Origin: an uncultured virus (IMG/VR IMGVR_UViG_3300024505_000605) | Lineage: Duplodnaviria > Heunggongvirae > Uroviricota > Caudoviricetes | Length of the DNA: 64,000 nt | Reading direction: 5' to 3' (one strand) | Virus record (IMG/VR): IMGVR_UViG_3300024505_000605 | Part shown: in pieces, positions 476 to 61,885 of the stretch | Layout: each line of letters starts with the position of its first letter | Position numbering within the stretch: position 1 is the first letter of the stretch | Notes under the pieces: generated by a model | Database searches by the model: none | Told to the model about the DNA's origin: nothing | What the model saw: only the letters and a program-made list of their open reading frames with translations | Translations under genes and position numbers: made by a program

Positions 476-2866
476 ATGTCGATTCCTGGTGCCGGCAACC
501 CACTCCTGCTTGGTGGTGCAGGTGGCTACAAGATTGAGCGCAGTCTGCGATTCAACTCAGCGGATTCGGCTTACCTGAGCCGCACCCCGGCATCAGCGGG
601 AAACAGGAAAACGTGGACGTGGAGCGGGTGGATCAAGAGGTCCGCGATAAGTGCGACCACTATATTGTTTTCAGTCGGTCTGAACACTGACGGGGATACT
701 GGCAGGCTGCTTTTGTATTTCGGTTCTGACAATAAGCTGGCAGTAGATGGAGGGGCGGTTTCATTCAGAACAACAACTGCTGTCTACAGAGATCCAAGCG
801 CTTGGTATCATGTTCTGATCAGTGTTGACACTACACTGGCAGCCGCAAATAGCCGGATTAGATTATATATAAACGGGTCAGAGATAACGACATTTGACGT
901 ACTAAACAACCCCTCGCAAAACGCTGATACTGGTGTAAATCGCACTAGCGCGCACAACATAGGACGCCGGGTGGATCCTGGCGACAATTACGCTAACTAC
1001 TACCTAGCCGAAGTCCACTTCATCGACGGCCAAGCCCTGACCCCCAGCAGCTTCGGTGAGTTCTCCGCTACCACCGGCGTGTGGATACCTAAGCGGTACG
1101 CCGGAACATACGGTACAAATGGATTCCACCTTGATTTCTCAAATAATGCCTCTGCCGCCGCATTAGGGACGGACTCTTCTGGCAACGGGAACACGTGGAC
1201 TGTCAACAACATTTCGGTTGCTGCTGGTGCAGGCAACGACAGCCTCGTAGACGTTCCCACTAATGGCAGCGAGGTTGATACGGGAAGTGGGGGGCAGGTG
1301 AGGGGGAATTACTGTACGTTGAATCCGTTGGCTAACGGCGGAAACACGCTTTCAAACGGCAATCTCCAAGCCGTTGGCGCTGTTGACAAAACAACTCTTG
1401 CCACTATCGGCATGAGTAGCGGCAAATGGTACTGCGAAGTAACCGTAGATAACGTAGGCGGATCTTGCCTTGTCGGAATAGCCAAAGGGGGAGTTGTTCT
1501 TTCTACCTGGATTGGCAGCAGCCCTGAAGGCTGGGCTTACGGAATGAATGGTCTTAAATATACAAACAATAACGGCGGCATAAGTTACGGAAATACATAT
1601 ACAACCGGTGACGTTATTGGTATTGCCTTCGATGCTGACGCCGGAAGTTTGTATTTTTACAAAAACGGAACTGTTCAGAATAGTGGCACTGCGGCGTTTA
1701 CTGGATTAACTAGTGGGCCGTATTTCTTCGCGTTTGGCTCAAATGCTCCTAGCTTTACTTGGAACTTCGGCCAACGCCCCTTCGCCTACACCGCCCCCAG
1801 CGGCTTCAAGGCGCTCTGCACGCAGAACTTGCCAACACCCACCATCACCAAGCCCAGCACCGTGATGGATGTGAAGCTCTACACCGGCAATGGTGGCACG
1901 CAGACAATTAGTGGGCTCGGGTTCTCGCCAGATTTTGTGTGGATCAAAAACCGCCAAGATAATTTGAGCTGGAATTTGTTTAACGATACGGTACGCGGTG
2001 CAAACAAAATACTGGCATCAAACGAAACAGGTGCTGAGTACAGCAACGACACTAACGGTTATCTATCTGCATTTACTTCTGACGGTTTTACACTTACCAA
2101 CGGGGGAAATGGAATTCAAGTCAACGGATCTGGCAAGTCTTTTGTCTCTTGGGCCTGGGACGCCGGCAGCAGCACCGTCACCAACACCTCCGGCACCATC
2201 AGCTCGCAGGTGCGGGCTAATCCAAGTGCGGGGTTTTCGGTGGTTACTTGGACTGGCAACGGGGCAAGTGCAACAGTAGGACATGGATTGGGTGTTGCAC
2301 CGTCGTTTTTAATTGTAAAAAGTAGAAGTACATCAAACTCTTGGGTTATTTACCACCGTGCATTGGGTGGTGCGTTCTATTTGCTGTTTGATACTTCGGC
2401 TGCAGGTGGTAGCGCAAACGCTACATGGGGAAGTGCAAATAGTGACCCAACAGCTTCAGTTTTTTCTGTTGGAAGTGGTGCTGCAACCAACGGCAATGGA
2501 TCTAATTTTGTTGCCTACTGCTTCGCCCCAGTCGCGGGCTACAGCGCCTTCGGTTCCTACACCGGCAACGGCAGCGCAGATGGTCCGTTTGTTTACTTGG
2601 GATTCCGTCCCGCGCTTGTCATTGTCAAAATGTCGAGCAGTACCGGTGACTGGACAATGCTTGATTACCAGCGCGAAGGTTACAACGTAGATAACGACCC
2701 GCTGTATCCAAACCGAAGCAATGTCGAAGGGACAACAGACCTGATCGACATCACGAGCAACGGTTTTAAGGTGCGCACCACCGACGCTACGTTCAATACA
2801 AATGCTGGCACTTATGTGTATGCCGCCTTCAGTGAGGTAGCATTTAATTTTGCTAGAGCGCGATGA
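476..2866 (+). CDS. Tail-associated lectin-like protein (ConA/LamG-like plus SPRY-like domains), putative receptor-binding protein
   Basis: SLRFNSADSAYL, WTWSGWIKR, RDPSAWYH, SGKWYCEV, GDVIGIAFDAD, NFGQRPFAYTAPSGF motifs; directly follows tail fibre. Confidence 0.75.
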   Translation: MSIPGAGNPLLLGGAGGYKIERSLRFNSADSAYLSRTPASAGNRKTWTWSGWIKRSAISATTILFSVGLNTDGDTGRLLLYFGSDNKLAVDGGAVSFRTTTAVYRDPSAWYHVLISVDTTLAAANSRIRLYINGSEITTFDVLNNPSQNADTGVNRTSAHNIGRRVDPGDNYANYYLAEVHFIDGQALTPSSFGEFSATTGVWIPKRYAGTYGTNGFHLDFSNNASAAALGTDSSGNGNTWTVNNISVAAGAGNDSLVDVPTNGSEVDTGSGGQVRGNYCTLNPLANGGNTLSNGNLQAVGAVDKTTLATIGMSSGKWYCEVTVDNVGGSCLVGIAKGGVVLSTWIGSSPEGWAYGMNGLKYTNNNGGISYGNTYTTGDVIGIAFDADAGSLYFYKNGTVQNSGTAAFTGLTSGPYFFAFGSNAPSFTWNFGQRPFAYTAPSGFKALCTQNLPTPTITKPSTVMDVKLYTGNGGTQTISGLGFSPDFVWIKNRQDNLSWNLFNDTVRGANKILASNETGAEYSNDTNGYLSAFTSDGFTLTNGGNGIQVNGSGKSFVSWAWDAGSSTVTNTSGTISSQVRANPSAGFSVVTWTGNGASATVGHGLGVAPSFLIVKSRSTSNSWVIYHRALGGAFYLLFDTSAAGGSANATWGSANSDPTASVFSVGSGAATNGNGSNFVAYCFAPVAGYSAFGSYTGNGSADGPFVYLGFRPALVIVKMSSSTGDWTMLDYQREGYNVDNDPLYPNRSNVEGTTDLIDITSNGFKVRTTDATFNTNAGTYVYAAFSEVAFNFARAR

Positions 2867-3516
2867 GCAATAAGATTCCGATGGTAGGCAAGCGTTTCGG
2901 CCGCTTGGTTGTCCTTGAAGAGGCTGGTCGACTTGGCTCGTTCCTTGCTTTTAACTGCCAGTGTGACTGCGGTAATACCGTCGTGGTGCGTGGACCTTCA
3001 CTTCGCAGCAAGAACACAACCAGTTGCGGATGCCTGCAAAAAGAAGTTGTAGGCAATCTGAATAAGACACACGGCATGTGTCAAAGTACGGAGTATCGCA
3101 TTTGGTCCAATATGCTTTCTCGCTGCACCAATCCAAATGTTGGATGCTATGAGCGCTATGGCGGCAAAGGGATAACAGTCAGCGAAGACTGGAAAGCCTT
3201 CGAGCAATTTTACGCGGATATGGGCGAGCGTCCAAAAGGTAAAACTTTAGATCGCATCGACAGCGATGGCCCATACTCTAAAGAAAACTGCCGATGGGCG
3301 ACAATAGCCGAACAGAATCGCAACACGCGACGAACGCAACTTGTGACATACGACGGGCGAACCATGTGCCTGAAGGATTGGGCGGAAGAACTTCAAATGC
3401 CGTACAAGACACTACACAAGCGAATTAGGGTGCAGAAATGGCCTGTTGAAAAAGCAATGACAACTCCTTTGCGTTCGATTAACCAGTCCCCTTTCTCCCT
3501 GGCTCGTGCCAGGTAA
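2863..3516 (+). CDS. HNH homing endonuclease
   Basis: GKRFGRLVV, CQCDCG, TSCGC, TLDRID..GPYSKENCRWAT..QNRN. Confidence 0.85.
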   Translation: MSNKIPMVGKRFGRLVVLEEAGRLGSFLAFNCQCDCGNTVVVRGPSLRSKNTTSCGCLQKEVVGNLNKTHGMCQSTEYRIWSNMLSRCTNPNVGCYERYGGKGITVSEDWKAFEQFYADMGERPKGKTLDRIDSDGPYSKENCRWATIAEQNRNTRRTQLVTYDGRTMCLKDWAEELQMPYKTLHKRIRVQKWPVEKAMTTPLRSINQSPFSLARAR

Positions 3517-3536: not shown

Positions 3537-3992
3537 ATGTTCATTCTTGACGGCAAGCCACTATCCCCGGATGTGGCCTTTACCCACGACGGCATCCAGT
3601 ACCCCGCCAACTGGCTGCGTCTTGCCACGCCTGAAGAGCGCACAGCCATCGGCATCACCGAAGAGCCCGACCCGCAGCCATACGATCAGCGGTTCTACTG
3701 GGGCTATGACTCAGACGGCAATCTGATCCCTAAAGATCACGCCCAACTGGTTGAACAGTGGTCGCAGCAGACACGTACCACCGCTGGTACGTTGCTGCAA
3801 CCAACGGATTGGATGATCATCCGCCAAGCAGATAACGGCGTCGAAGCTGATCCCGCCATCAAAACTTGGCGTGAAGATATTCGCCTAGCTACTGGCGACA
3901 AGATCACTGCCATCGAAGACACCACAACCACCGACGAACTCGCCGCCTACATCACTGGCGCTGACTACCCCGTATGGCCTGAGCAAAACTGA
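3537..3992 (+). CDS. Tail fibre assembly/chaperone-like protein, copy 1
   Basis: LLQPTDW...WREDIR...WP motif after fibre genes; 144/151 aa identical to 45692..46147. Confidence 0.6.
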   Translation: MFILDGKPLSPDVAFTHDGIQYPANWLRLATPEERTAIGITEEPDPQPYDQRFYWGYDSDGNLIPKDHAQLVEQWSQQTRTTAGTLLQPTDWMIIRQADNGVEADPAIKTWREDIRLATGDKITAIEDTTTTDELAAYITGADYPVWPEQN

Positions 3993-4129
3993 TGGCTGTA
4001 AAAAGTAAAACTGCCCTGGGACGTGTCGACCACAAAGCCGGCCGCCCAAAAACAACTTCTCAAGGCTATGGCCAACACTCGCGTCCTCGCCGTCGCGGCA
4101 AGAAAAAGCTAGTGGGCCAAGGCCGCTAA
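3992..4129 (+). CDS. Small basic protein (45 aa, MAVKSK...GQGR)
   Basis: Read by hand; TGATG coupling; homolog at 46147..46281. Confidence 0.75.
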   Translation: MAVKSKTALGRVDHKAGRPKTTSQGYGQHSRPRRRGKKKLVGQGR

Positions 4130-4160
4130 ATTAGGTAAAAGGTCGGCAGTATGCCTCGCA

Positions 4161-4415
4161 ATGGATCACCACGAAGAGGCTATTACTTCCGCAACTCCAC
4201 CAAATAACCCCTTAAACCAAGCCGTCCCAGCCCTGTTGACCGCAGCTGTGCTGGGTCTCGGCGGTCTTTTCATGCAAGTTGCAAAATTAGACCAGTCAGT
4301 AAGCACAGTAGCCGCCGATATTCAAGAACTAAAAAACGACTCTAAAGAACGCCTTAGCGATCTCGAAACCAGGGTGCGTCAGATTGAAATGACTGTCGGC
4401 ACCCAAAATAAATGA
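4161..4415 (+). CDS. Single-TM coiled-coil protein of the lysis region
   Basis: Hydrophobic AVPALLTAAVLGLGGLFM then heptads; homolog at 46314..46565. Confidence 0.65.
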   Translation: MDHHEEAITSATPPNNPLNQAVPALLTAAVLGLGGLFMQVAKLDQSVSTVAADIQELKNDSKERLSDLETRVRQIEMTVGTQNK

Positions 4416-4594
4416 GCGTCGTCCACACCACCGACTTCGGTAACGGCTACAGCTTGGACCAGCTGGAAAACGAACGCGGCGAACTGTACTACCGAGCCTG
4501 TTTAAACAGCGTCTGCCGTTATGCCGAAGACCATTACATCGCGATGATGTATCTCGAAGGCATGGGCTGGGACCCTAAAGCAACCCCCCAGTAA
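4412..4594 (+). CDS. Hypothetical protein
   Basis: ELYYRAC..VCRY motif shared with the ORF ending at 49206. Confidence 0.65.
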   Translation: MSVVHTTDFGNGYSLDQLENERGELYYRACLNSVCRYAEDHYIAMMYLEGMGWDPKATPQ

Positions 4595-4892
4595 TCCACT
4601 GCACAATCGCGTCCTCGCGGTGCGGCTCCCAAAAATCCTGATCTCTGTACCACTCAATCCAATCTTCCGCCGACTTCGAGATATTGCACGCGAAACAGCA
4701 CGCCACCAAATTCTGCTGGTGCGTATGCCCACCCCGCATTTTCGGGTGCACGTGATCCAGCGTTGCTGACCGTCCTAAATCAACAGAACAGTAAGCACAT
4801 TTGTTCTGCCAATGTTTAAGAATTGATTGCCTAAATCGCGCCTTTGCTTCTTTTTTGTTTAAGTATTCGCCATCTTCAATGCGATGGTCCAT
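4575..4892 (-). CDS. Small HNH endonuclease
   Basis: CAYC..TLDHVHP..GG...NLVACCFACN; homolog at 48869..49180; start taken at MDHRIE. Confidence 0.85.
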   Translation of the reverse strand: MDHRIEDGEYLNKKEAKARFRQSILKHWQNKCAYCSVDLGRSATLDHVHPKMRGGHTHQQNLVACCFACNISKSAEDWIEWYRDQDFWEPHREDAIVQWITGGLL

Positions 4893-4990
4893 ACCCAGCA
4901 GTGGCTCCACAGAATGTAGCGGTAGAAACTATTACGCGCACTAGCCTTCTTCTCTAGTACAGCTAAACTCAATAAAAGCCACAGCTTTTT

Positions 4991-11319: not shown

Positions 11320-11825
11320 CCTTTTGAAGCCTGAACGGTTTTGTCCCCCTGGTACCTCCCAGTGTGGGAGTAGTCCTTGCTGGGCAGCATCGTCATCCGA
11401 TGGAACACGATCTGCGCAATCCGCATCCCAGGCCACAGTGCAACCGGGTGCATCATCCGCGCATTTTGCAGTTCCAGCGTTAGCCTCCCACAGTATCCGG
11501 GGTCGATATACCCAGCAAGGAGATGCTCAATCCCCTCCCTGGCACGACTGGACTTCAGCGCCAGCTGCCCAGCAATACAGTCCGGCAACCGGAACTCCTC
11601 GACCGTCTCCGCAAGGATGAACTCATGCGGCTGGAGCATGAACGGCTTTTCCTGCGTGTGCCCAGCAATGGAAAAGGGCACCAGCTGGGGCGTTGATGGC
11701 AACTCCACCAGCAGATTCTCACCGAGTCTCACATCAAGACTCGCGGGATTCACCAGCTCCTTATCGAAGGGAGTGACTAGCTCCCTCCGCGCCAGCGTGA
11801 AAATGTCGATGTCCGCCAGGATCAC
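11316..11825 (-). CDS. dcd: dCTP deaminase
   Basis: NPASLDVRLG, LKSSRAREG, AGYIDPGY.G.LTLE, RYQGD; GTG start assumed. Confidence 0.92.
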   Translation of the reverse strand: MILADIDIFTLARRELVTPFDKELVNPASLDVRLGENLLVELPSTPQLVPFSIAGHTQEKPFMLQPHEFILAETVEEFRLPDCIAGQLALKSSRAREGIEHLLAGYIDPGYCGRLTLELQNARMMHPVALWPGMRIAQIVFHRMTMLPSKDYSHTGRYQGDKTVQASKG

Positions 11826-12227
11826 GCCGCAGCCGCCGCAACGGTTTCCTGCTGGATCGCCACATGCCGCCAAGTCTTCCCGGACTTAATGCAGTTGATC
11901 GTGGTGGGATGCACCGCAAACTCCTTAGCGATCTTCGCCACCGACTTCCCACCAGCAGCCAGCTGGCGCTTAATCTCCAGCACCTTGGGCTCCGTCAGCA
12001 CCGCCACCCCACGCTGTCCCTTGCGGCTGGACTTACGAGTCTTACTTTGAGACTGGCGTACGGCAGTTGTACGTACAATTTTCTCGCCAGCGGGCAGCGG
12101 GATCGTCTGCTTGGGATTGGTCAGATCCAGCTCAACGTGCTGGCACGTATCAAGAGCAAAGCGAGCAGCATCAAGAGCTTTGATGACCTGATCAAACTGA
12201 GCTTCCGAAAGGATGTACATGTTCATC
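11822..12227 (-). CDS. C-terminal HTH DNA-binding protein
   Basis: LTEPKVLEIK...IAKEFAVHPTTINCIKSGKTW; homolog at 51854..52198; start approximate. Confidence 0.7.
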
Positions 12228-12272
12228 GGTTTGGAACGTGTGCAGTGTAGTAGGGAAGAGCGGGTCTGTGTC

Positions 12273-12301
12273 AACTCCTAATTAGGCGGAAATTAGGAGC
12301 T
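12273..12301. repeat. Inverted repeat with 11-7-11 architecture
   Basis: AACTCCTAATT-AGGCGGA-AATTAGGAGCT (10/11 complementary). Confidence 0.85.
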
Positions 12302-12316
12302 GGCTAGTGGGTTTGA

Positions 12317-12514
12317 CTAAGGAAGCGGCGGGGAACTATCTGGAGATCCCGGAGGGTTGACTAAACCGCAACGGCCCCAGTAACCCTTCCGCATTGCTGA
12401 GCCAATCCAACGCCTGTGAATCCAGTCTGGCCAGCGGGTGTCTGAATTGACCCAGCGGAAATTACCGATCTTCCCTGCGTGGCTGCAGACGTAGATAAAT
12501 GGAAACTCAGACAT
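12317..12514 (-). CDS. Hypothetical cassette gene
   Basis: ORF bounded by TAGT-N7-ACTA sites. Confidence 0.55.
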   Translation of the reverse strand: MSEFPFIYVCSHAGKIGNFRWVNSDTRWPDWIHRRWIGSAMRKGYWGRCGLVNPPGSPDSSPPLP

Positions 12515-12528
12515 CGGAGTTGATCGGA

Positions 12529-12738
12529 CTACTCGGCGTGTTGCCAGTCAGTATCTGGTTGGTGTTTGCGTAGAAACTCCACCAATAAACGGTGCGCTTC
12601 GCCTGCATCAGCGATGAACTGGCCTCGGTAATGGAAGCCTTTGGCGTCGATTCGGATGACTTCCTCAGAAGCCGGGCTCATATGGAAACTGATAGAAGAG
12701 CTATCTGGAGAATCGACGGATAAACAAAAGTCAGTCAT
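12529..12738 (-). CDS. Hypothetical cassette gene
   Basis: ORF bounded by sites; EVIRIDAKGFHYRGQFIADAGEAHRL. Confidence 0.65.
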   Translation of the reverse strand: MTDFCLSVDSPDSSSISFHMSPASEEVIRIDAKGFHYRGQFIADAGEAHRLLVEFLRKHQPDTDWQHAE

Positions 12739-12756
12739 GGTGGTTAGTGATGTTGA

Positions 12757-13125
12757 CTAATCAGGTAGGGATTCAAGTGCGCGGCGGATGGGCCGCAATG
12801 CGTCAGAGACAGTGATGCAGTCACCACGCATTACCGCTTCGTCTAACGCCGCTAATGCCTGCTCCTTCAAGCTCGGCGGCTCGGGGCGGCGATGGCGACG
12901 GAGACCGTCTGCACAGTCGGTTGAATAAACCGTTGCCTCATACTCACAGCACGCCTCCAGCTCCTGATCAGCGCCCCAGCGGGCGGCTTGGGTGGCGATG
13001 TCTTGAAGCTTGTTTGTTGTGATATTGACTGTGAAAAGCTTTTCTGAGATGCTGGCATACTCAGGCATTTCTCGCCACTGCTTCACGAGCTCAGGCGGTG
13101 GGGTGATCGGGTGTTCTTGAGTCAT
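12757..13125 (-). CDS. HPITPPPELV-family hypothetical protein
   Basis: Homolog at 61010..61399. Confidence 0.75.
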   Translation of the reverse strand: MTQEHPITPPPELVKQWREMPEYASISEKLFTVNITTNKLQDIATQAARWGADQELEACCEYEATVYSTDCADGLRRHRRPEPPSLKEQALAALDEAVMRGDCITVSDALRPIRRALESLPD

Positions 13126-13153
13126 TCGTGAACCTCGTAGTGTGTAGAACTGA

Positions 13154-13411
13154 TCAATCTTGTAGTTCAAGTTTGATAGCGGCCTGAAAATAACCAGCCA
13201 CCTTCAGCCTGCGGTATGCCGGACGAGCTTCCTCGGACTGCTTGTTTTCGATGTTGTCGTACTCATGCCGCGCCTCTTGGAGCGCAGCCATGGTGTCAAC
13301 GTTGAGAAGGTGCAGCTCCGAGTCCGAAAGCTCGGAAAGCTTGTCCAAATAAATGGTCCGCCCGTTCAGCAAATAGGAACGGTAAAACGGCACCATCGAA
13401 TTTTCAGTCAT
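13154..13411 (-). CDS. Hypothetical protein
   Basis: Packed operon ORF. Confidence 0.6.
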   Translation of the reverse strand: MTENSMVPFYRSYLLNGRTIYLDKLSELSDSELHLLNVDTMAALQEARHEYDNIENKQSEEARPAYRRLKVAGYFQAAIKLELQD

Positions 13412-13840
13412 CAGCGTGTTCAACAACGTAGGAATTACGGAGCTGGCTCCGGATTTTGATGGTCTCGTCGTGCCCCACGTTGCCGAGGTAATCAGCAGCG
13501 CGAAGCGCGACCATGTGCGCCATCAGCGCTGGATCGTGCTTGTACTGACCGATGGTGTCCATCAGCTCGTACACGTAGGAGTCACATGCTTGGAACTCCT
13601 CGGGAAACGGTAGCGCCAAAGTGTCGTACCAGTCCGACTCCAGCACGTCTTGACCGGGCTCCAGTGGGTTGGGTCCCCACTCCCCACCGTCATCCCCTTC
13701 CCAGCCGTAGTCCTGTCGAATCGACCACTTTTCGTAATCCAGGCCCATCGCCAGCTCGACAGCACCAACGTGCTCGTACCAGTTAGAGCGACTCTCCAGT
13801 TGCTGGAGATTGAAAGCTGCGTCAGTCATTGAAATCTCAT
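13404..13840 (-). CDS. Acidic hypothetical protein
   Basis: Packed operon ORF; start uncertain. Confidence 0.6.
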
Positions 13841-14086
13841 GCAAAAAAGTTTGGATCTTGCTGCCTCAACCGGGTGAGATCCGTGAGTCTCAACTTGAGA
13901 ATCTCGTGGATAGCCAGCTTGGCTAAGCGGGTGGAACTAATGGTGTCGCTGGTGGCGAACACGTAAATGAGGTGGCGGTAAAGCTGGGTCAGAGTTTTGA
14001 TCCTGACCCAGTGCGTATCGCCGGGGATTGGCTCGGTGCCGTAGTCCCAGTCGTCGTAATCGTCTGAGTTACGAAGCTCGCGGGAT

Positions 14087-15331: not shown

Positions 15332-17767
15332 TTACCAGATGTCGGCCTCCTTTGTAAGCCGCTCCATTTCTTCGGGAGTGCGCCAGTTCTCGCGCGTGAA
15401 GATAGAGCTGTCTTCTTGTCCCAAACTCTCAGAAACGTTGCGCTGCAATAGATCTGCCGTTTTTAGCTGTCCCGTTTTGTCCCGTTTTGTCCCAACCTGT
15501 CCTTTTGGTGTCCCAGAAGCCGGTTTTGGCTCCAATTCGGGACAACTTGGGACAGAACGGGACAAAGTGGGACAAGCCATTTCTTCAGATCCAGCTCCAG
15601 CACTGGATTCTTCTTCTTTGGGACAACTTGTACCTCCTCCCCCCCTGCGCGCGAGAACTGCTGAGTAGCGCTTGCTGGAACGTTCTCCTTCAACAGAGAC
15701 CAGCCCACGGTCGATCAAACGCTGGAGCGACTTCGAGATGGCGTTGACGCTGCCGCCCAGCAGAGGGTCAGCGTTCAGCTCGGCTTTAGTCATCGGCACG
15801 CCCTTGGTACGCAGCCGCTGGAGCACCCGGTCGATGATCGAGGCAGGTGCAGCGGAATCCACGCCTTCCGCAGCCGGTAGATCCTGGAGCGAGAACGTGA
15901 GGTCTTCCTTCTGGCGCAGCACCAGTTGCTTGCCCTCATTACCCTCGCGGCTTTTACCGATGGTGATGAGGCGTGCAGAAGCCCCTACACGTTCCAGCTC
16001 GGACTTTTCCGGACGGTTGATAGCCCAAGACTCATCCACGGCGTCTTGGAGCGCTGAGGTGCCCCTGAAGTCCCCGCTCTTGGCGGCATGGTGGATGAAA
16101 ACGATGGTGGTTGCCGGGAAGCTCTCGCCGTTTTCCGCGCTGTACCAGTAGATCGGCTCGGCGTATTCGGCCTTGTTCTGGTCGTACGCACAACCACGCA
16201 TACAAGCGGTTACCGAATCCCAAACCACGAGCTTGGGGCGATGCTCCTCAATCTGCTGGATAAACCAGGGATACCAAAGCATCGAAACTTTGTTCTGTAC
16301 TACAACCGGATCATCAGCAGTGAAGTCCAAGTCCTTGAACTGCTTACGCATCCGGCGGCTGTTCTGATCGCCGTTAAGCCACAGCACCTTGCCCTGCTCG
16401 ACAGGCACTTCTGCACCGCGTACAGAGAACGGAATCCCCCGTGCGATGTGCTTAGCCAACGTCAGCACCGCCATGGTCTTGCCACAGCCACCACGCCCGT
16501 GGATCAACACAGTGCCTGGCTTAGGCAGCAAATCGGGAATCAGGTACTCGATTGGCGCGTCCTCCATGGCAAAAATTTCCTGCAGGCTGCCTCCCTGTGA
16601 TCCGCGTCGGTACTCCTGGTCTGCGATCAGCAAGCGCACAACAGCCGCAGCTTCCCGATAACCAGCCTCCAGGGCGATCTCGTGGAGCTTGTGCTGCACT
16701 TCCGACGGATTCGGCAGCGCCATCGCAGCAGTAGCGCGATTAACGATTTCTTCGTGCGAAAGACCGGTGGTGCGGAACCGCTGCACCCGATCTTGCTCAG
16801 CCTCAGAAACAACCTTCCGCAGATCCTCCGAAAGCCACATGCGGCCAGGCATCTGCTGATCCGCCAGCCAGAACAGCGAGCCAAGGCTCACCGGCCCCTT
16901 GCGGAAGGATTTCCAAACCTCTTCACAGGGATTGCCTTCTGCCCAATCCTGAAAAAATTCGGGGTCTTCCGAAGACCAAGCGGACCAAAGCGTCAAACCG
17001 AGGTCAGTCGGCAACTCCGAGTGAATCGCCATCCCCACCTTGACCCAGTGATCCCGGCTGCCACTGCCTTGGCCGGGAATCACCCGCAGCGCCGACTGAA
17101 TGATCTCAGCCACCTCAGCCGGGTCTCGATCCGAGAAATCCAGCGCCTTGCGGTTCTTAATGAAGCCGCCATCCTGCACATCCTTCCCACTGGCATCCCG
17201 CATTTCCGCCAGCAGCCACTCAGGAGCCACCGGAATGGCCTCCATGTCGCCTTCAAAGCCGTAATGGCCTGCCGGAGCCTTCCCATCACTGGAGCCCGGA
17301 TAAGCCCCGTAGAGAAGCCCCTGACGGCCCCAGAGCACCTCGTAACCAGCGCCGGTATCCGACAGCCCAAAACCCTTCACCGAGCCCCACAGGGCCTCAG
17401 GGACGCGGAAGAGGTACTTCGCCGCGTTCGCCTTGGTCGAGGTAACGACTGGAGCACCCTCCAGCGAGTCTCCCCACTTTTTCTTGAGACGACTGAGATT
17501 CCGATCCACGTCGAGAATCACGAGTCCCATGCTGCGACCGCCCGTAAAAACGCCCACCGCCTGGAACACCTCAGGCTTGCGCTCGATCTGGAGCGCCACA
17601 TCCGACGGCGCCAACACTTGGTGGTGGCTGCGCTCTAGCGGGGTCTTGCCTTTTGAAATTTTCCCGGACTGGATCGCCTGATCCTTGGCGTAGATCGGCG
17701 CATACGCCATCCCCACAGGCAGCTGGCGCACAAAAGCCAGCAAATCCTGCGTCTTACCTTGCGACAT
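15332..17767 (-). CDS. Primase-helicase (Prim-Pol, PriCT-2, AAA helicase, winged helix)
   Basis: LVILDVD; WVKVGMAIH...WSAWS; GRGGCGKT Walker A; LVVWDS Walker B; FIHHAAK..RGTSAL. Confidence 0.9.
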   Translation of the reverse strand: MSQGKTQDLLAFVRQLPVGMAYAPIYAKDQAIQSGKISKGKTPLERSHHQVLAPSDVALQIERKPEVFQAVGVFTGGRSMGLVILDVDRNLSRLKKKWGDSLEGAPVVTSTKANAAKYLFRVPEALWGSVKGFGLSDTGAGYEVLWGRQGLLYGAYPGSSDGKAPAGHYGFEGDMEAIPVAPEWLLAEMRDASGKDVQDGGFIKNRKALDFSDRDPAEVAEIIQSALRVIPGQGSGSRDHWVKVGMAIHSELPTDLGLTLWSAWSSEDPEFFQDWAEGNPCEEVWKSFRKGPVSLGSLFWLADQQMPGRMWLSEDLRKVVSEAEQDRVQRFRTTGLSHEEIVNRATAAMALPNPSEVQHKLHEIALEAGYREAAAVVRLLIADQEYRRGSQGGSLQEIFAMEDAPIEYLIPDLLPKPGTVLIHGRGGCGKTMAVLTLAKHIARGIPFSVRGAEVPVEQGKVLWLNGDQNSRRMRKQFKDLDFTADDPVVVQNKVSMLWYPWFIQQIEEHRPKLVVWDSVTACMRGCAYDQNKAEYAEPIYWYSAENGESFPATTIVFIHHAAKSGDFRGTSALQDAVDESWAINRPEKSELERVGASARLITIGKSREGNEGKQLVLRQKEDLTFSLQDLPAAEGVDSAAPASIIDRVLQRLRTKGVPMTKAELNADPLLGGSVNAISKSLQRLIDRGLVSVEGERSSKRYSAVLARRGGGGTSCPKEEESSAGAGSEEMACPTLSRSVPSCPELEPKPASGTPKGQVGTKRDKTGQLKTADLLQRNVSESLGQEDSSIFTRENWRTPEEMERLTKEADIW
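15384..15660. repeat. Mirror-symmetric TGTCCC/GGGACA iteron array, putative replication origin
   Basis: 10-bp phased hexamers in inverted sets plus a perfect 13-bp outer inverted repeat. Confidence 0.8.
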
Positions 17768-32615: not shown

Positions 32616-33362
32616 ATGGCCACCGTTCTCTCGGGCACTTCCGGCGCCCTGTATTACACCCCTGCCGGCACCTCCGTCACCACTCTGACTGCTGGCGCCT
32701 TCCCTTCTACTGGCGCCAACATCACCGTCGGCTCCTACTTGGGCTTCAAGGTCAATGACCCTGTGACCCTGACCTACCCCGTAGGCGCCACGACCACCAA
32801 CGCAATTCCCGCTGGTCCGTACTTCGTCAAGACGTACAACGCCGCAACCGGCATCATGACTCTTAGCGCCACCGCTGGCGGCGTGGCCGTTACCGCAACT
32901 GCAGCACCCAGCGGCTTTGGCGCAAACTTCGCCAGCATTGCGTACACCGCCCCCGCAGCTGTGGGCTCTGTGCGCGAGTGGAGCTTCGAAATCACACGAA
33001 GCGAAATTGACGTCACAACCATCGGTCAGGAAGCCGGTCAGTACGCCCCCTTCCGCAGCTATATCACTGGCTTCGCCGACGGCTCTGGTTCTGCCACGGT
33101 GTACACCACCGACGACGACACCAACCTGTCCAGCCGGATGATCGAGGACGTCATCCAGGCAACCCAGGCTGGCGCGACGATGAAGCTCTACATCGACCGC
33201 ATTGTTGCTTCTGGCTCGGTGAACGACACCACCAGCCGCAGCATCACGGTGCCTGTGATTCTGACCTCGGCCAGCCTGACCGTGAACCCGGACGACGGCC
33301 AGAGCGTGGAAATCGCCTTCCGCCCCAGCGCCGCCCCCACCTTCGACCTGTCGAAGTCCTGA
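32616..33362 (+). CDS. Major tail tube protein
   Basis: VREWSFEITRSEIDVTT...GSGSATVY; strong codon bias; followed by terminator. Confidence 0.8.
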   Translation: MATVLSGTSGALYYTPAGTSVTTLTAGAFPSTGANITVGSYLGFKVNDPVTLTYPVGATTTNAIPAGPYFVKTYNAATGIMTLSATAGGVAVTATAAPSGFGANFASIAYTAPAAVGSVREWSFEITRSEIDVTTIGQEAGQYAPFRSYITGFADGSGSATVYTTDDDTNLSSRMIEDVIQATQAGATMKLYIDRIVASGSVNDTTSRSITVPVILTSASLTVNPDDGQSVEIAFRPSAAPTFDLSKS

Positions 33363-33394
33363 TAGGCTGCTACTCAGCCAGTTCAGCACACCGC

Positions 33395-33423
33395 GCCCCA
33401 GCCCTCGCCGGCTGGGGCTTTTT
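33395..33423 (+). terminator. Intrinsic terminator
   Basis: gccccagcc-ctcgcc-ggctggggc-ttttt. Confidence 0.85.
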
Positions 33424-33468
33424 ATTTCTATTGCGCTACACTACTTCTGTCTTAAGTAGCAGTTTTTT

Positions 33469-33813
33469 ATGCCTGCCGCGCTTCGTGCAATCGACCGTCT
33501 CCGCAAGGCAGCAAACCTGGAGCCCACCAAAAAAGAAGTGGAACTCAGCGACGGCTCCACTTTCGAAATGTGGGTCACTCCTCTGACCATGGCTGAGCGC
33601 GAACGCGCCCAGAAGCAAGCCAAGTCCGAGGACGCCACCGCCTTCGCCCTCCAGCTGTTGCTGCAAAAAGCCTGCGACGAGACCGGAGCCAAGCTGTTCA
33701 GTGCCGCCGAAATCGACGTCCTCAAAAACGAAGTCAAGGATAAGGATCTCCAGGTATTGATGCTGGCCGTCTTGACCGATGATTCGGAGGAGTTGGACAC
33801 CAAAAGCGCTTGA
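33469..33813 (+). CDS. Tail assembly chaperone (G-like)
   Basis: Between tail tube and tape measure genes. Confidence 0.75.
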   Translation: MPAALRAIDRLRKAANLEPTKKEVELSDGSTFEMWVTPLTMAERERAQKQAKSEDATAFALQLLLQKACDETGAKLFSAAEIDVLKNEVKDKDLQVLMLAVLTDDSEELDTKSA

Positions 33814-34000
33814 AGAGGAGCTTAAAAAGGACGGTTACCTGCGCATCCAGTTTTTCGTTGCCGAAAAGCTCAGCCTAACGTTGAGCGACCTGCGCAACCG
33901 GATGACAGACACCGAACTCTTGGGCTGGTTCACCTACTTCAAGATCCAGTCGGACGAAGAGCAAGCTGCCTACGAAAAAGCCAAGCGCGGCCGCCGCTAA
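33779..34000 (+). CDS. Tail assembly chaperone T-like segment, probably a frameshift extension
   Basis: Overlaps the G ORF in the +1 frame. Confidence 0.65.
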   Translation: MIRRSWTPKALEEELKKDGYLRIQFFVAEKLSLTLSDLRNRMTDTELLGWFTYFKIQSDEEQAAYEKAKRGRR

Positions 34001-34053
34001 CCCGGCGGCTTTCTAACGGGATAGACTGCTAAACAGAAGTCCGTCCGGCCAGC

Positions 34054-37000
34054 GTGGCTTACCAAGCCGATATTTTAATTAACGTACGCGGCTTCCAAGA
34101 TCTGGCGCGTATTCAAAAACAATTAGAAGGTACTGCCCGCAAGATTGATGAAGTAAATGAAGCAGCCGCCCGTATGGGCGCACCAAACAGAACCATCGAG
34201 CGTTTTTCCGCTCAACTACAACTTGCCGAACGGTCACTCCAAAAAGTTGCTATTGGCTCTGTACAAGAACAACGTGCAATCAGTAACTATGTAACCGCTT
34301 TAAACAATTCGAATGTAGCGAGAGACCGACAAAACAAACTTATTCAGGCAGAAATAAACACACGTAACGCGGCTACAAATGCAATTCGCGCAAATGTAGA
34401 AGCCAATATCGCAGAAAGCCAAGCTTCTAGAGCCGCTCGTGCCGAAGCCCAACAATTAAACGCGCAGCTTATACAACAGGAGCGTCTACGCAGAAAACTC
34501 GCTGAGCGCGGGCTCATGCAACTTAGTGGTGGCGGCGTCGCCAAAGGGGTTGCCGACGCCGGCTTCGGTGTACAAGGACCAGCTCGTCCACCAACAAAAA
34601 AACCTACGGGTCTTCAAGCCCCAGGCGTCATGGACGCCATTTTGGGTGGCGGCTTCCCGATGCTGTTCGGCGGCGGCCCCGGCGCCGTTCTGGGTGGCGC
34701 AGCCGGAGGTTTTATTGGTGGTGCTATGGGCGGCATGGCCGGCATGGCCCTCAGCATCGGCCTATCTGCCGTGGGGCAACAATTAGACGCCGCCGTTGTA
34801 AAAGTAAAAGAAGTAGGCGACGCCATCAACGCAATCAGCACTAATGATTTGCGCGATAGTTTTATCGTCGTTAACGCAGAGCTTGATACCACAGTACGCC
34901 GTCTACTCGAAGCGGGTCAAATCGACAAAGCCCGCGCCACACTTGCCGCTGAAGTAGCAGCTCAGACTGGCGCAAGCACGCAGGCCATTTCTGGCGTTAC
35001 TGCTAGCACCCAAAAGCTATTTACTGCGTGGGATCGCTTTACTAGCGCGGTCTCGACGACAGCCGGAATCATAGGGCAACCGTTACTAGACGGTTTAACA
35101 GCGGTATTGAATGTTGTGACCTTGGCTGCACAAGGTGCAAATACACTACTAAGTCTTTTCGCCAAAGTAGGTCCAATCTTAGAAACAGGCCTTGCACCAT
35201 TATTACCTATTATTCCTTTACTTAAGCAACTATCAAATGCTATGCCTAGTGGAGTAAATGAAGGCGTAGAAAAGCGTAAAGCTGCTTTAGAGGAAGAAAC
35301 AGATAATCGTATGTACAATCTTGTCCTAATGGGCAAACAAGAACGGATAGACAAACGGATGAATAGAGGTACAACGGCAGCAGCCCAAATACAGAATAAC
35401 GAACTGGATCGCCAAAAACAGATCAACTCTTTAGTTGCTAAGAGAGATGCAGATCTACGTGCTGCACGTAAAGAGTTCGGTGGTGTTGACGATACGCAGT
35501 TAGCTGTACTTGAAAAACAGATCCAAGTTGAATTCAAACTTAATCAAAGGCTCGTGGAGCGCGAGGCACTCCGTAAACGGGAACGCTTGGAACTGGAGCA
35601 AACCCTAGATGTAATTCGTGCTACAGCAACGGCAGAACTCGGGGCAATTAACCGTAAAGAACAAATTCGCCAACAAGATTTAAAACTATCCCAAGCTCTT
35701 CTCGAATCGGGGCAAAACTCTACCCGTCTAGAGGAAAGTAGTGCAAATAGTCGTCTTAAGGGTTATCAAACACAACTAAAATTTAGTACATCACTAAACG
35801 AAACATACGCTATATACGGCGCTATGTCTAATAAAGTAAACGAAATAGCCTCTACACAACAAGAAAGTGCACGAAATGAAGCTGAAATGACAAAATTACG
35901 TGCAGACGCAAGTGTGCGTGAAGCTGTAGCGGAAGCAGACCGTGCTAGTGTAATGGCCAGGGCTGCTGAAGCTGATAAAGAGGCTTTACGTGCCGCTGGA
36001 GACCTTACAGCATTAAAAGAAGTAGAGTTGAACAACATTATTGCTCAAGAGGCAATAGCTCAGCGCAATATAGGTATAACGCGAGAAACAGCTCAACTAG
36101 CTAAAGAAGATGCTGATGCCCAACTTGTAGTTTCAAAGGCTCTTATCGAAAGAAATAGACTTGAAGAACAACGGGCTATTACTGTACAAAAAGTAGCTGC
36201 CTACGCTGCTGACGCAGCACGCCAAACTGAGGCTTTCAATCGTGCCGCAAATGAGGCCACCAATGCTCTTAACAATCGCCTACAAGTAAGTGACGCTTTA
36301 ACACAAACAGCATTACAAATAAACAACATTGAAATTGAAAGTCTTCAAAACAAACTGGCTCAGGCCAAAACTGAAGGTCAGCGTATTGATATTTTGGATG
36401 CTATTCGAGAAATTGAAATCGAAAATGCGCGTATAACGCTTGAGTCAACTCGTACACAAATACGCGCAGAAGTAGAACGTCAGCGCATCGCCCTGTCCAT
36501 GGCGGAAGTCAAATACAGGGAACTCCAGTCCGTAGTCGCTTTGGCACGTGCACAAAAAGTCCTAACGATTGATCACATCGAAGCACTGCGTGCTCAAGAA
36601 TCCGCTCTCCGAATTGCAAAAGATAACTACGCAACTACGCTTCGTGTTGCCGACGCTCAATTACGTGCAGCAGATGCGGTATACAACGCTTCTGTTAATG
36701 CTGCAAATCTCAAAGCCAGCATGGAAGGTACCGCAGCCGCTGCCGAGCGCACAGCAGCCGCACTCCAGCAAGCCACAGGCACTGGAACAGCATCAACTCC
36801 GGCGCTGATTGCATTTGGCGAAGCGGGTAAAAACCTCGAATTTGCTAACGCCTGGTATGAACGTCTTAAGCAACTAGACGCCCAAACTGGCACTGTCGCC
36901 GGCAAGCAACGCGACTACAACAGAGCCTTTGAAGAATTCTTGGCACTGGCTGAACGGTATAACCGCATCCAAGCCGGCCAACGCCGCCAGCAAGCCCAAG

Positions 37001-41515: not shown

Positions 41516-43219
41516 ATGGCCAATCTCAAGATCAGTCAGCTGGCAGCCATAGCGGAAGCGGACGTTGTATCCGCCGACGTTTTGGCTGTTGCGGATATTT
41601 CGGCAACCGAGACCAAAAAGATCACCGCTGCCGACCTCGTTAAGGCTGGCGCCCGACTGAACGCTGGCCCAGTCACCTTCGGCGATGACGTCGTTATCAC
41701 TGGCGACCTTACGGTCAACGGCACCAGCACAACGATTGAAAGCACAACAGTCGTAGTTGACGACAAAAATATCGAGCTTGGCGCAGTCGCCACTCCCACC
41801 GATGTAACTGCTGACGGTGGCGGCATCACTCTGCGTGGTGCGACAAACAAAACACTGAACTGGGTCAACGCCACGGATGCGTGGACCAGCAGTGAGCACG
41901 TCGACCTCGCCAGCGGCAAGAGCTACTACATCAACGGCAGCCAGGTCCTAAGCAGCACAACACTCGGCAGCGGCGTCACCGGCTCCAGCCTTACCAGCCT
42001 CGGCACCGTCACCACAGGTACCTGGAGCGCTTCGACTATTGCTGTCGATAAAGGAGGCACTGGCCAAACCAGCTATACCAACGGTCAACTGCTGATTGGT
42101 AACAGCACAGGTAACACGCTGACGAAAGCAACGTTGACCGCTGGGGCCGGCGTCACGATCACCAACGGCAACGGCTCAATCACCATTGCAGCCGCTGGAT
42201 CTGGCGGAACAGTTACCGGCGTCACCGGCACCGCTCCAATCGCAAGTTCGGGTGGCACAGCCCCCGATATTTCGCTGAGTCTTAAGGCGAATGGCGGTCT
42301 TGTTACCGAGACCAACGCACTGGCTGTTGACCTTGGCGCCAGCAGCATCACTGGAACACTTGGTGTTGCAGACGGCGGCACCGGGCAAACCACCTATACC
42401 GACGGCCAACTGCTGATTGGCAATAGCACCGGCAACACTCTTACCAAAGCAACACTGAGTGCCGGTACCGGCATCACAATCACGAACGGCAGCGGCTCAA
42501 TTTCCGTAGCTGGCACCGCCGCTTCTACTTCTGTTGCCGGCGTCGTACAGCTAACCGATAGCACTAGCAGCACCAGCACTACAACTGCTGCTACTCCCAA
42601 CAGCGTCAAGTCTGCATACGACTTGGCCAACGCAGCACTCCCCAAAGCCGGTGGAACGCTTACAGGCGATCTACTGCTGGATAACCAGTCAGATCTGCGT
42701 TTCGGGGAAGCCACCGGACATGGCGGCAACTGGGTTGCTTTCCAAGCACCCTCCACAGTTGCAAGCAACGTCACTTGGACACTGCCCAGTGCTGACGGCA
42801 CCGCATCCCAAGTCCTAAGCACCGACGGCGCTGGAACACTGAGCTGGACAACACCTGCCTCTGGTGCAGGACTAGATACCGCGCAGACTTGGACCAAAGG
42901 TCAACGCGGCGAGATTACAGCTCTTACTGATGGGGCTACGATCACGCCAGATTTCAGCGACAGCAACAACTACAGCGTGACTCTTGGCGGTAACCGCACC
43001 CTCGCCAACCCCACCAACTTGGTGGCTGGGCAGTCCGGCTGCATCTGGATCACGCAGGACGGCACCGGCTCCCGCACGCTGGCATACGGCAGCTACTGGG
43101 ACTTCACCGGCGGTACCGCGCCGACATTAACCACAACGGCTAACGCCGTGGACTGCTTGGTGTATGCCGTGCAGAGCAGCACCAAGATCACTGCCCAACT
43201 GATCACCAACCTGAGCTGA
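41516..43219 (+). CDS. Tail fibre protein
   Basis: MANLKISQL, GDLTVNGT, GVVQLTDST..AATPNSVK fibre repeat. Confidence 0.85.
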   Translation: MANLKISQLAAIAEADVVSADVLAVADISATETKKITAADLVKAGARLNAGPVTFGDDVVITGDLTVNGTSTTIESTTVVVDDKNIELGAVATPTDVTADGGGITLRGATNKTLNWVNATDAWTSSEHVDLASGKSYYINGSQVLSSTTLGSGVTGSSLTSLGTVTTGTWSASTIAVDKGGTGQTSYTNGQLLIGNSTGNTLTKATLTAGAGVTITNGNGSITIAAAGSGGTVTGVTGTAPIASSGGTAPDISLSLKANGGLVTETNALAVDLGASSITGTLGVADGGTGQTTYTDGQLLIGNSTGNTLTKATLSAGTGITITNGSGSISVAGTAASTSVAGVVQLTDSTSSTSTTTAATPNSVKSAYDLANAALPKAGGTLTGDLLLDNQSDLRFGEATGHGGNWVAFQAPSTVASNVTWTLPSADGTASQVLSTDGAGTLSWTTPASGAGLDTAQTWTKGQRGEITALTDGATITPDFSDSNNYSVTLGGNRTLANPTNLVAGQSGCIWITQDGTGSRTLAYGSYWDFTGGTAPTLTTTANAVDCLVYAVQSSTKITAQLITNLS

Positions 43220-43220
43220 G
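42746..43220 (+). repeat. Long imperfect direct repeat, copy 2
   Basis: Aligns to 1-475. Confidence 0.97.
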
Positions 43221-43223
43221 CTA

Positions 43224-43349
43224 ATGATTCCCGGAAGCGCTAATCCTCTCCTGCTTGCTACTGCTGCAGCCGGAGGATATTCCATTAGCAGAAGCCTTCG
43301 ATTCAATTCAAGTGACAGTGCCTACGATGGCCAGGAGGTGGCAGCATGA
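43224..43349 (+). pseudogene. 41-aa stub matching the lectin tail protein N-terminus
   Basis: MIPGSANPLLLATAAAGGYSISRSLRFNSSDSAYDGQEVAA* matches the start of 476..2866. Confidence 0.7.
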
Positions 43350-44604: not shown

Positions 44605-44772
44605 TGGAACAAATAGTGTGCCCCACCAGTGAGCAGATGTAACAACCTGAACTAATGACCCACTCCTTCTCTGAACTCACCAAAGGCATCAGCCAAAAGC
44701 GCCGTGAACAGATCGAACAGCGTAAAGAAGAGATCCGACGCAAGTGGTTTGAAACCCCATTAGGGAACAAGG

Positions 44773-45627
44773 TTAAAGCGTCGGCATTTCGTAGTCCTGT
44801 GTCGTATTGCAGTAGTGCTTCCAAATAACCTCAGCTGTATTACCAGCCCATTTAGCGACTTGCGCCACAGGTATTCCCGCCTCAATCCACCGGCTGATTG
44901 CTGTATGGCGCAGATCGTATGGCCGGTAACGGTGGCTAGTTAATCCGGCGCTGTGCAATTCCTTCGCTCTGTCATAGAAAAAGCTTTGGAACGCATATCT
45001 GTTGTACGGGAAAATATATTCGTTGTCCTTGTCAACAGATTCAAGAATATCCATGCACTTTTCGTTTAAAGGCACAACGCGTTTTTTGTTTGTTTTTGTG
45101 GAAAGTTTTAAGCCGTGCGTAAGGGTGTAATTGCAGTGGATCAACAGTTTTCCATCCTTTAGGTCAGTCCACTTGGCAGCGCGAACCTCGCCTGTACGCA
45201 TTGCTGTCTGCAACATAAATTCTGAATAAGCTGACCACCGTGCGCCACGTTTTGTTTGGCGAGCTTCCAATGCAGTAAGCAAAAGCGCCACTTCACTGCG
45301 CGGAATCACGATAATCTCTTCATCCATCTGGGGCGCTTTCGGCATCCGAAAACTAGCAATCGGATTTTTAGGCAGGTAGGCAATGTCTTCGCTGCTGACC
45401 CAGCGGTAAAGGGCCTTGACATACATCGCCACACGGCGGCTGGACTTGACGGGCTGCTGACCCAAAATCCATGTAAGAACCTGTCTGCCTTGCTCCAGTT
45501 CCGTAACCGGACAGCGCTCGATCCACTTATCGACTTGCCTGTAGTCCGCCATGAGACTGGTGGGACACAAGACGGCGGAACGTTCCGCGTGGAACTCGGC
45601 CCATGCGCTTTGGAGGGTGTGTGGCAC
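44773..45627 (-). CDS. Tyrosine recombinase (short, no arm-binding domain)
   Basis: TAMRTGE (R), KT, YDLRHT, WAGNT, KHY (Y). Confidence 0.9.
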   Translation of the reverse strand: MPHTLQSAWAEFHAERSAVLCPTSLMADYRQVDKWIERCPVTELEQGRQVLTWILGQQPVKSSRRVAMYVKALYRWVSSEDIAYLPKNPIASFRMPKAPQMDEEIIVIPRSEVALLLTALEARQTKRGARWSAYSEFMLQTAMRTGEVRAAKWTDLKDGKLLIHCNYTLTHGLKLSTKTNKKRVVPLNEKCMDILESVDKDNEYIFPYNRYAFQSFFYDRAKELHSAGLTSHRYRPYDLRHTAISRWIEAGIPVAQVAKWAGNTAEVIWKHYCNTTQDYEMPTL

Positions 45628-61576: not shown

Positions 61577-61822
61577 ATGTCTGAACTTTCCTCCGCCGCG
61601 CAGGCGGTGATTACTGCCAGCAACTGTGCTGGGTCTCGAATCGTGCAGTTGCACATTGCCGCCGCCCTGCGAGCTGCTGCGGATCAGGTGGCGCCTCTGC
61701 AGCTCCCACCCGAAGGCGCTGTTGATGCCAAGCACCCAACAGTTGAATGGCACGTCTGGAACGCTGAGCAGCAAGCTCGATTCGCCCTCTTGGCTATTGC
61801 CACCGAACTAGAAGCCCAGTAG
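61577..61822 (+). CDS. Hypothetical protein (LS.AAQAV...AAALRAAADQV...AIATELE)
   Basis: ORF ends in a TAGT-N7-ACTA site. Confidence 0.7.
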   Translation: MSELSSAAQAVITASNCAGSRIVQLHIAAALRAAADQVAPLQLPPEGAVDAKHPTVEWHVWNAEQQARFALLAIATELEAQ

Positions 61823-61885
61823 TCAGACCCACTAACCTGATCCTGTTCCCGCTCTGCCTCGGCATCGGGCTGCCACATCCGACTC

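Follow-up and report, generated by a model that had tools for sequence, protein, structure and literature searches.

Stop-codon-embedded 14-nucleotide linkers as cassette joints in small-gene arrays of uncultured freshwater tailed phages

We analysed a stretch of 64,000 nucleotides, hereafter the window, from an uncultured virus of the Caudoviricetes (IMG/VR record IMGVR_UViG_3300024505_000605), in which several small genes on the minus strand are separated by copies of a 14-nucleotide (nt) sequence of the form TAGT-N7-ACT. These copies, which we call sites or linkers, are real cassette joints, since the same 14-mer sits between unrelated genes in different phages, its variants (alleles) follow a fixed order, and exchanged segments end on the sites. 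With regard to mechanism, we lean, at roughly even confidence, towards linkers that act as like-with-like, homology-dependent crossover joints for the swapping of cassettes, probably by general recombination and not by a tyrosine recombinase.

Results

The linkers are a set of exact alleles placed on stop codons

Five sites had been reported in a preliminary description of this DNA made from its letters alone, four on the minus strand and one at 61820-61834, and all five were recovered with the same sequences and positions (Table 1). The motif had been taken as 15 bp long. Its inverted arrangement is indeed present, but the conserved unit is 14 nt, TAGT-N7-ACT, since the last A varies. The TAG is the upstream stop codon, as had been proposed, for the open reading frames (ORFs) 12757-13170, 12529-12738, 12317-12514 and 61577-61822, and a start codon lies close behind the site, 12, 6 and 2 nt after sites A', B and C, respectively. 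Site A' is a decayed copy. The A-type site of relatives is gatTAGTTCTACACACTA, followed by the same cgaggtt...ATGACTCA leader as in the window, and its register reads gatTAGTT in relatives versus gatTGATCAGTT in the window. On the minus strand at 13138-13156 the window has TGATCAG where allele A has TAG; the upstream gene therefore now ends at TGA, and A' has lost its stop-codon role. A further candidate of the preliminary description, TAGTGTGCCCCACCA at 44614-44628, does not belong to the set, because it is one of 14 one-mismatch background matches, its middle is G-rich and it lies off any stop codon. One-mismatch matches in the window number 19, against 8.8 +/- 2.8 expected, and five of the 19 are the real sites.

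The linkers form a small set of exact sequences and not a loose consensus. At least nine alleles, named by their 7-nt middle, can be distinguished: A (TCTACAC), B (CAACATC), C (CCGATCA), E (CAGACCC), H (CATTACC), I (CGCTTCC), J (CACCTTC), K (CCACCTC) and L (CACTGTC). A few one-base variants of these alleles are also present, site D of the window among them. On the gene strand the base C is found at position 5 in 60 and at position 11 in 54 of 67 exact sites, and G is rare in the middle. Sites are strand-specific, all being on the coding strand in one orientation. Of 70 exact sites, 61 have a TAG that terminates an ORF of 30 or more amino acids, and 53 are followed by a start codon within 20 nt; starts are found 0-16 nt behind the site. 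The bond to the stop codon is clearest for the genes of family 0, whose member in the window anchors the array (12757..13125). In a scan from the gene ends, every one of the 25 family-0 genes with a TAG stop proved to bear a site at no more than two mismatches (18 exact, 4 at one mismatch and 3 at two); the 54 with a TGA or TAA stop bear none, and the distances are bimodally distributed.

Sites are grouped in one local array of 1-5 members with a median spacing of 263 nt, spanning 1-1.5 kb, and show no genome-wide scatter. The arrays belong to freshwater and estuarine tailed phages, where they are placed in the genome part for replication and nucleotide metabolism. In an independent search the exact C 14-mer was found in at least 118 viral-contig stretches. 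Among 80 of these that were fetched, an open frame of at least 30 codons ends at its TAG in 53; by eye, about 50 of the same 80 are true stop-codon junctions with other alleles nearby, and about 22-27 look random. As for cultured phages, no match was seen in Synechococcus siphovirus S-CBS2, and the only one in S-H1 is background-like and distant from the family-0 gene of that phage; no laboratory system with sites turned up. Record G002 (locus L010, 41 kb) carries two arrays about 18 kb apart, at 15444-15727 and 33232-34080, both with alleles B and C in the same orientation; were the sites freely recombining, these direct repeats should delete the interval between the two arrays.

No Shine-Dalgarno core or other purine-rich core was found in the 14-mers, and no Rfam match at E<=1 was obtained within 11500-14000. 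An RNA hairpin at the sites was considered and rejected, as the folds are no better than those of shuffles: site D has a z of -1.6 and the other four sites are near 0, and three of the five minimum-free-energy folds leave the arms unpaired. Within allele lineages, decay strikes the arms as often as the middle.

The sites are not a product of chance

The count of palindromes in the window is unconvincing when taken alone. Exact TAGT-N7-ACTA occurs three times versus 0.24 expected (p=0.002), yet among 3328 pairings of a four-base arm with a spacing it comes only 13th, and it is not significant after multiple testing. Chance is ruled out by two other counts, both of which had been suggested in the preliminary description. 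The first controls for TAG stops: T-N7-ACT occurs at 4 of 16 TAG-terminated ORFs, against a background of 9 in 1103 over all TAG trinucleotides in the window (binomial 7e-6). The second comes from relatives, where the best 80 family-0 loci in viral contigs (774,069 bases) hold 67 exact TAGT-N7-ACTA versus 2.7 expected.

Alleles keep a fixed order

Over 37 distinct arrays, which were ascertained via family 0 and via allele C so that the generality of the result is limited accordingly, all 47 adjacent pairs follow the order A<B<K<C<E with none reversed, and no allele is repeated in any array. For pairs that involve H, I and J, five are in order and one is reversed. A fixed order of sites combined with changing genes in the slots is what like-with-like exchange predicts, and it is the opposite of integron insertion at any site.

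Genes are exchanged from site to site

The same 14-mer is found in many distinct contexts: 12 for B, 11 for C, 9 for J, 8 for E, 7 each for H and I, and 3 for A. Identity between contexts opens at TAG and closes at ACT, with both flanks unrelated (over 135 nt in the comparison made for site B). This is the picture of a boundary or linker sequence, that is, a short sequence conserved at a module border with differing flanks. The genes in a given slot vary among phages, to the extreme of a nearly empty slot in which B and C are 86 nt apart, and the same gene end is seen with differing alleles.

Breakpoints between relatives lie on sites, and the small co-oriented promoterless genes that the preliminary description saw as delimited by the motif are gained, lost and replaced site to site. 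Through site B the window matches locus L049 at 76-80% identity, and then the two are unrelated; homology restarts, at 80-92%, at a point 5 nt behind site D in the window and 8 nt behind site C in L049. Locus L040 shares with L041 and L043 a segment of 310 bp at 99.0% identity that opens with the first base of C and closes 2 nt behind E, and outside this segment they have only the family-0 gene in common, at 81%. Between L041 and L042, a match of 556 bp at 96% ends with the last base of site B. Overall, 16 of 215 internal ends of matches of at least 90% identity fall on sites (within 4 nt), versus 0.69 expected. Breakpoints were counted at 16 of 115 sites and at 48 of 1872 other called gene ends (odds ratio 6.1, p=3e-7), figures in which the 16 are inflated by redundant loci (6 distinct ends, 4 events) and the control gene ends include spurious ORFs.

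Variants were also found in assembled contigs of four public runs from river and freshwater. A contig of run X9 is of the L049 type, with another gene in the B-C slot, cassette 2 missing, and the array-closing hairpin behind site C. In a contig of run X2, allele E takes the place of C behind a cassette 1 of 94% identity, and the TTGACA hexamer comes directly after this allele. An abundant relative, about 86% identical, is without the entire 902-bp array; its matching side is only 24 nt long, a weak alignment. The variant joints in these contigs are at or beside sites, the array-less relative excepted. An unbiased search for 12-mers with many different flanks recovered the site alleles, and also conserved coding motifs, so that it is not a clean test.

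Genes and elements of the arrays

The elements of the array and the landmarks of the window are collected in Table 1.

Table 1. Linker sites, array elements and landmark genes of the 64,000-nt window
Feature	Position	Strand	Remarks
Site A'	13138..13152	-	CAGTTCTACACACTA; degenerate copy of allele A (TAGTTCTACACACT)
Site B	12745..12759	-	TAGTCAACATCACTA
Site C	12517..12531	-	TAGTCCGATCAACTC
Site D	12305..12319	-	TAGTCAAACCCACTA; one-base variant of allele E
Site E	61820..61834	+	TAGTCAGACCCACTA; unit 2
Upstream small gene, 90 aa	13154..13426	-	Its stop precedes site A'
Family-0 gene, 122 aa	12757..13125	-	Array anchor; stop is the TAG of site B; phrog_32006-like
Cassette gene 1, 69 aa	12529..12738	-	No family match
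Cassette gene 2, 65 aa	12317..12514	-	No family match
Hairpin closing the array	12272..12302	-	12-bp stem, 7-nt loop
TTGACA hexamer	12269..12274	-	Directly behind the closing hairpin
Helix-turn-helix gene, 134 aa from ATG	11822..12226	-	C-terminal helix-turn-helix like phage HNH endonucleases
Second family-0 gene, 129 aa	61010..61399	+	Unit 2; no site at either end
Family-1 gene, 81 aa	61577..61822	+	Ends ...ELEAQ; second common array resident
Tyrosine integrase	44773-45627		Between units 1 and 2; PF00589, Phage_integrase family, 63.5 bits
Large terminases (two)	23416, 59052
Portals (two)	25930, 62201
Endolysins (two)	5154, 46985
dCTP deaminases (two)	11316, 48044

Relatives of the family-0 protein are encoded by 610 of 615 candidate viral-contig stretches, i.e. 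at least 610 relatives exist. The protein has no Pfam match; among PHROGs it matches only phrog_32006, which is without an assigned function, and in the Atlas only viral hypothetical clusters. Its AlphaFold2 model is all-helical (pLDDT 82), and Foldseek gave no PDB match at E<=0.001. Four conserved blocks (median identity 0.70-0.88) alternate in this protein with three hypervariable blocks (0.09-0.17). The variable blocks are mosaic: residues 61-78 are identical to those of locus L010, and the other variable blocks have their best match elsewhere. The pattern of linkers and cassettes is thus repeated within the gene, where short conserved stretches likewise serve as points of crossover.

The small gene upstream of A' shows 76-80% DNA identity to the gene that precedes the A-type site in L049. 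The start of cassette gene 2 follows site C in loci L096 and L147 too, behind other upstream genes. Unrelated cassette genes often start with the same 9-mer, ATGACTGAC (Met-Thr-Asp), as at 12738-12730 in the window, and this 9-mer recurs among many differing flanks. The array is closed by a hairpin of -15.7 kcal/mol (z -4.9; none of 200 shuffles is as stable), also present after the last site of L049-type arrays, which could be an operator or a terminator before the helix-turn-helix gene. The TTGACA hexamer, judged from its sequence, is possibly the -35 box of the next gene. The helix-turn-helix gene matches phrog_20467 at 2.6e-7, with Pfam HTH_38 under its cut-off; its relatives occur in 7 loci with sites versus 1 without, which is no significant tie (p=0.25).

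Gene content and source of the window

PHROG and Pfam scans and a self-comparison revealed two differing but related tailed-phage gene sets in tandem within the window, with borders near 4500 and 45650. Unit 1 encodes an endolysin, a DNA polymerase, ThyX, a dCTP deaminase, the site array, a primase-helicase, a single-strand-binding protein, an exonuclease, a large terminase, a portal, and capsid and tail genes. Unit 2 encodes an endolysin, a dCTP deaminase, a Sak-like annealing protein, RusA, an exonuclease, a second large terminase and a second portal. The window matches itself at 1-512 versus 42746-43257 (92%) and at 3549-4408 versus 45704-46561 (81%). Possible sources of the double gene set are two phages in tandem, a composite genome of larger size and a chimera of the assembly. 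HNH or endonuclease VII-like genes number five and are spread over both units (2863-3516, 4575-4910, 48869-49180, 56449-57066 and 58492-59124); 56497-56625 and 59085-58957 form an inverted pair of 74% identity. The tail-fibre gene 41516-43219 holds a direct repeat, 42053-42180 and 42374-42501, of 81% identity.

The closest named relatives are S-H1 and S-CBS2, with a match that covers only part of one gene. The stretch was found in river and freshwater metagenomes. Only six contigs of metagenome-assembled genomes have a match, in mixed bins that include Synechococcus and Cyanobium bins, and these are uninformative as to a host or prophage context.

Discussion

How cassettes may be exchanged

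The role that can be demonstrated for the linkers is that of crossover points: a linker recombines with the same allele of another genome, so that the gene between two linkers is swapped and the linker order stays. The exchange would depend on homology and would be carried out by general recombination. Likely agents are the single-strand-annealing protein and exonuclease genes of the phages themselves, perhaps helped by breaks made by the many HNH endonucleases. General recombination genes were present in the three phages examined (G006, window unit 1 and window unit 2); in the complete genome G006, RecE-like and RecT-like genes are located about 3 kb from its array. It is the presence of these genes, together with the mosaic nature of the family-0 protein, that makes us favour homology-dependent crossover at short conserved stretches, with the 14-mers as those located between genes; to this reading we assign about an even chance. 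The structural genes of G006 belong to other PHROGs than those of the window, which shows that arrays travel between unrelated backbones. The linkers themselves may be conserved because the 14-mer would also serve expression at the stop-restart junction (UAG, then a G-poor unstructured leader) or, alternatively, because lineages that keep their linkers could go on exchanging cassettes.

Several observations weigh against crossover at the linkers. According to parts of one report (PMC3945230), the minimal efficient pairing segment is 23-27 bp for Red-beta and 31-34 bp for RecA. A linker of 14 nt is below this minimum, so homologous exchange at linkers should be rare. Purifying selection on all 14 positions is unexplained by a crossover role alone. 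A site-to-start distance of 0-16 nt suits a precise ribosome-binding element poorly. In 32 of 77 distinct loci no called gene end bears a site (28 of 77 by a second scan), and homology between the window and L049 restarts 5-8 nt behind the site at the array end, not inside the site. The evidence for recent exchange amounts to four locus-pair events. Finally, downstream of family-0 genes we counted 14 families in 29 junctions with a site versus 38 in 59 site-less ones. Turnover of neighbour families was accordingly dropped as a sign of site-driven shuffling: a first apparent excess was a family-size effect, and the matched comparison shows no specificity.

Could the sites be purely regulatory? 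They would then be protein-binding DNA or RNA sites, or a signal for stop-restart translation, and mosaic joints would fall there incidentally, as they commonly do at gene borders. Such a reading, which we regard as unlikely, is attractive for the fixed register to the stop codon, the nearby start, the single orientation, the G-poor middle and the purifying selection over the whole 14-mer; it also agrees with the high neighbour turnover at site-less junctions and with the resemblance to the start-associated sequences of Cluster K mycobacteriophages, as those are presented in parts of PMC3203893. Incidental joints, however, would not repeatedly end at both edges of the 14-mer between unrelated DNA, would not bound a cassette that is 99% identical, and would not give a sixfold excess of recent breakpoints over other gene ends. 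A single regulator would also leave at least nine exact alleles in a fixed order unexplained, and the sites have neither a stable RNA hairpin (z about 0 in four of five, -1.6 in site D) nor a Shine-Dalgarno core nor an Rfam match. A role in stop-restart translation or protein binding is nevertheless a possible cause of the conservation of the sites.

A dedicated site-specific exchange is quite unlikely in our estimation. A putative phage or host enzyme would read the TAGT and ACT arms and cut in or beside the middle, and only matching middles would rejoin. Arms that are invariant over at least nine alleles, each with an exactly conserved middle, would suit such an enzyme, as would the sharp edges of identity at TAG and ACT, the cassette that is 99% identical exactly from site to site, the strict order without repeated allele, and a length of 14 nt that is under the pairing length quoted for general recombinases. 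Against this stand the searches for the enzyme itself. No candidate was found: PF00589 is absent from all five related records, none of the 47 ORFs of G006 with 70 or more amino acids matches an integrase, a transposase or a serine recombinase, and no gene family within +/-6 kb tracks the presence of sites over 77 distinct loci (the best positive is ThyX, p=0.08). Moreover, the three to four conserved bases per arm are far below the arms of known recombinase sites, decay hits arms as often as middles, and the same gene end occurs with differing alleles. We consider distinctly improbable the more specific version in which the linkers are natural heterospecific exchange sites, whose arms would be read and middles cut by a putative enzyme so that cassettes are swapped slot by slot and never deleted or reordered. 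Its artificial counterpart is the mutant lox and FRT pairs of biotechnology. If such an enzyme exists, it could be one of the viral-only small proteins with conserved and hypervariable blocks that always accompany the arrays.

In the preliminary description, the sites were read as the core sites of a tyrosine recombinase, and the array as an integron-like system for inserting, excising or reordering genes, run by the integrase 44773-45627. A tyrosine-recombinase core site consists of two inverted arms of about 7-13 bp around an overlap of 6-8 bp. A tyrosine recombinase is an unlikely agent here: PF00589 is found in none of five related records with a family-0 gene, four of which have exact sites and one of which, the 100%-complete G006, has a four-site array; and only three to four bases per arm are conserved (TAGT(C)/(C)ACT), with unrelated flanks beyond. 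The integron-like array itself we regard as very nearly excluded. In its favour are the Phage_integrase-family protein encoded in the window (PF00589, 63.5 bits), the small size, shared orientation and lack of promoters of the cassettes, and a middle of 7 bp. Against it, the integrase is separated from the array by about 32 kb and sits at the border of two phage units, the supposed site beside it is background, the 14-nt sites have no attC-like folded structure, and the order is never scrambled (47 pairs in order, none reversed, no allele repeated) as any-with-any insertion or reordering would have it.

Comparison with known systems

In integrons, cassettes are moved by the tyrosine recombinase IntI at attC sites, which are long, imperfect inverted repeats with a single-strand fold, and they insert at or leave from any position, hence in free order. 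The arrays resemble those of integrons in that small co-oriented promoterless genes each have a site at their 3' end. They differ in that no IntI lies beside the array, the only PF00589 gene of the window being about 32 kb away, and in the lack of a long folded attC and of any-with-any insertion.

The nearest described analogue in form, as far as parts of PMC3203893 go, is the start-associated sequence (SAS) of Cluster K mycobacteriophages. The SAS is 13 bp long, with symmetric outer triplets around 7 bases, and is located 3-7 bp before start codons, in one orientation and only in the non-structural half of the genome. SAS and linkers are thus alike in length (13-14 nt), in the symmetric triplets around 7 bases, in their place just upstream of starts and sometimes including the upstream stop, in their single orientation and in their occurrence in the non-structural region between neighbours of differing families; neither has a known function. 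The SAS is a single consensus with a Shine-Dalgarno core (PMC3203893), whereas linkers lack such a core, always start with TAG and come as at least nine alleles, 1-5 per array.

The promoter-early stem-loops (PeSLs) of T4-type phages, as described in parts of two reports (Arbiol 2010, PMC2839356; Comeau 2014, PMC4122927), combine a sigma-70-like promoter with a terminator stem-loop, and mini-circles arise from exchange between nearby repeats. Like the linkers, PeSLs are short repeated elements between small non-essential genes of a hyperplastic region, and breakpoints of insertion, deletion and replacement between related phages coincide with the repeats; the exchange is attributed there to homologous recombination between the repeats. 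By contrast with these accounts, the linkers are 14 nt long, have no stable hairpin, lie inside an operon and overlap the stop codon, and they are distinct alleles in a fixed order, not one repeated consensus. No -35/-10 pair is visible within the 14 nt, by reading only and without a promoter scan.

Boundary or linker sequences were put forward for the mosaic joints of lambdoid phages on the same principle: according to parts of PMC3029335, short conserved module borders would allow in-register swaps by general recombination. The present linkers differ from that account in being explicit and exact, in dozens of contigs and in unrelated phage backbones. A likeness also exists to the stoperators of Cluster A mycobacteriophages, which are short oriented sites in tight intergenic gaps; in the parts of the two sources available (PMC9283540, PMC6550527) they are many copies of one repressor-binding sequence across the genome, whereas linkers are confined to one array of 1-1.5 kb with no repressor tied to them. 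A literature search, with the original lambdoid boundary-sequence papers and supplements outside its scope, gave no description of these sites.

Meaning for phage mosaicism

The 14-mers belong to the conserved-linker kind of modular exchange. Within this kind they are unusual, being embedded in stop codons, organised as discrete alleles in a fixed order and spread over unrelated backbones. It is an old question whether phage mosaicism arises via conserved linkers or by random illegitimate joins followed by selection, and, according to parts of PMC3029335, conserved linkers are not findable at most mosaic boundaries. Here the linker set is explicit, abundant, base-exact and ordered, it is common to phages with unrelated structural genes, and it bounds recent cassette transfers. 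With such an explicit set, the choice between linkers and illegitimate joins becomes directly testable. Should a dedicated enzyme exist after all, the linkers would represent a new class of programmable DNA-exchange site. Finally, by way of the linkers one can find the accessory genes that turn over fast in uncultured freshwater phages; these may be genes for host takeover or anti-defence.

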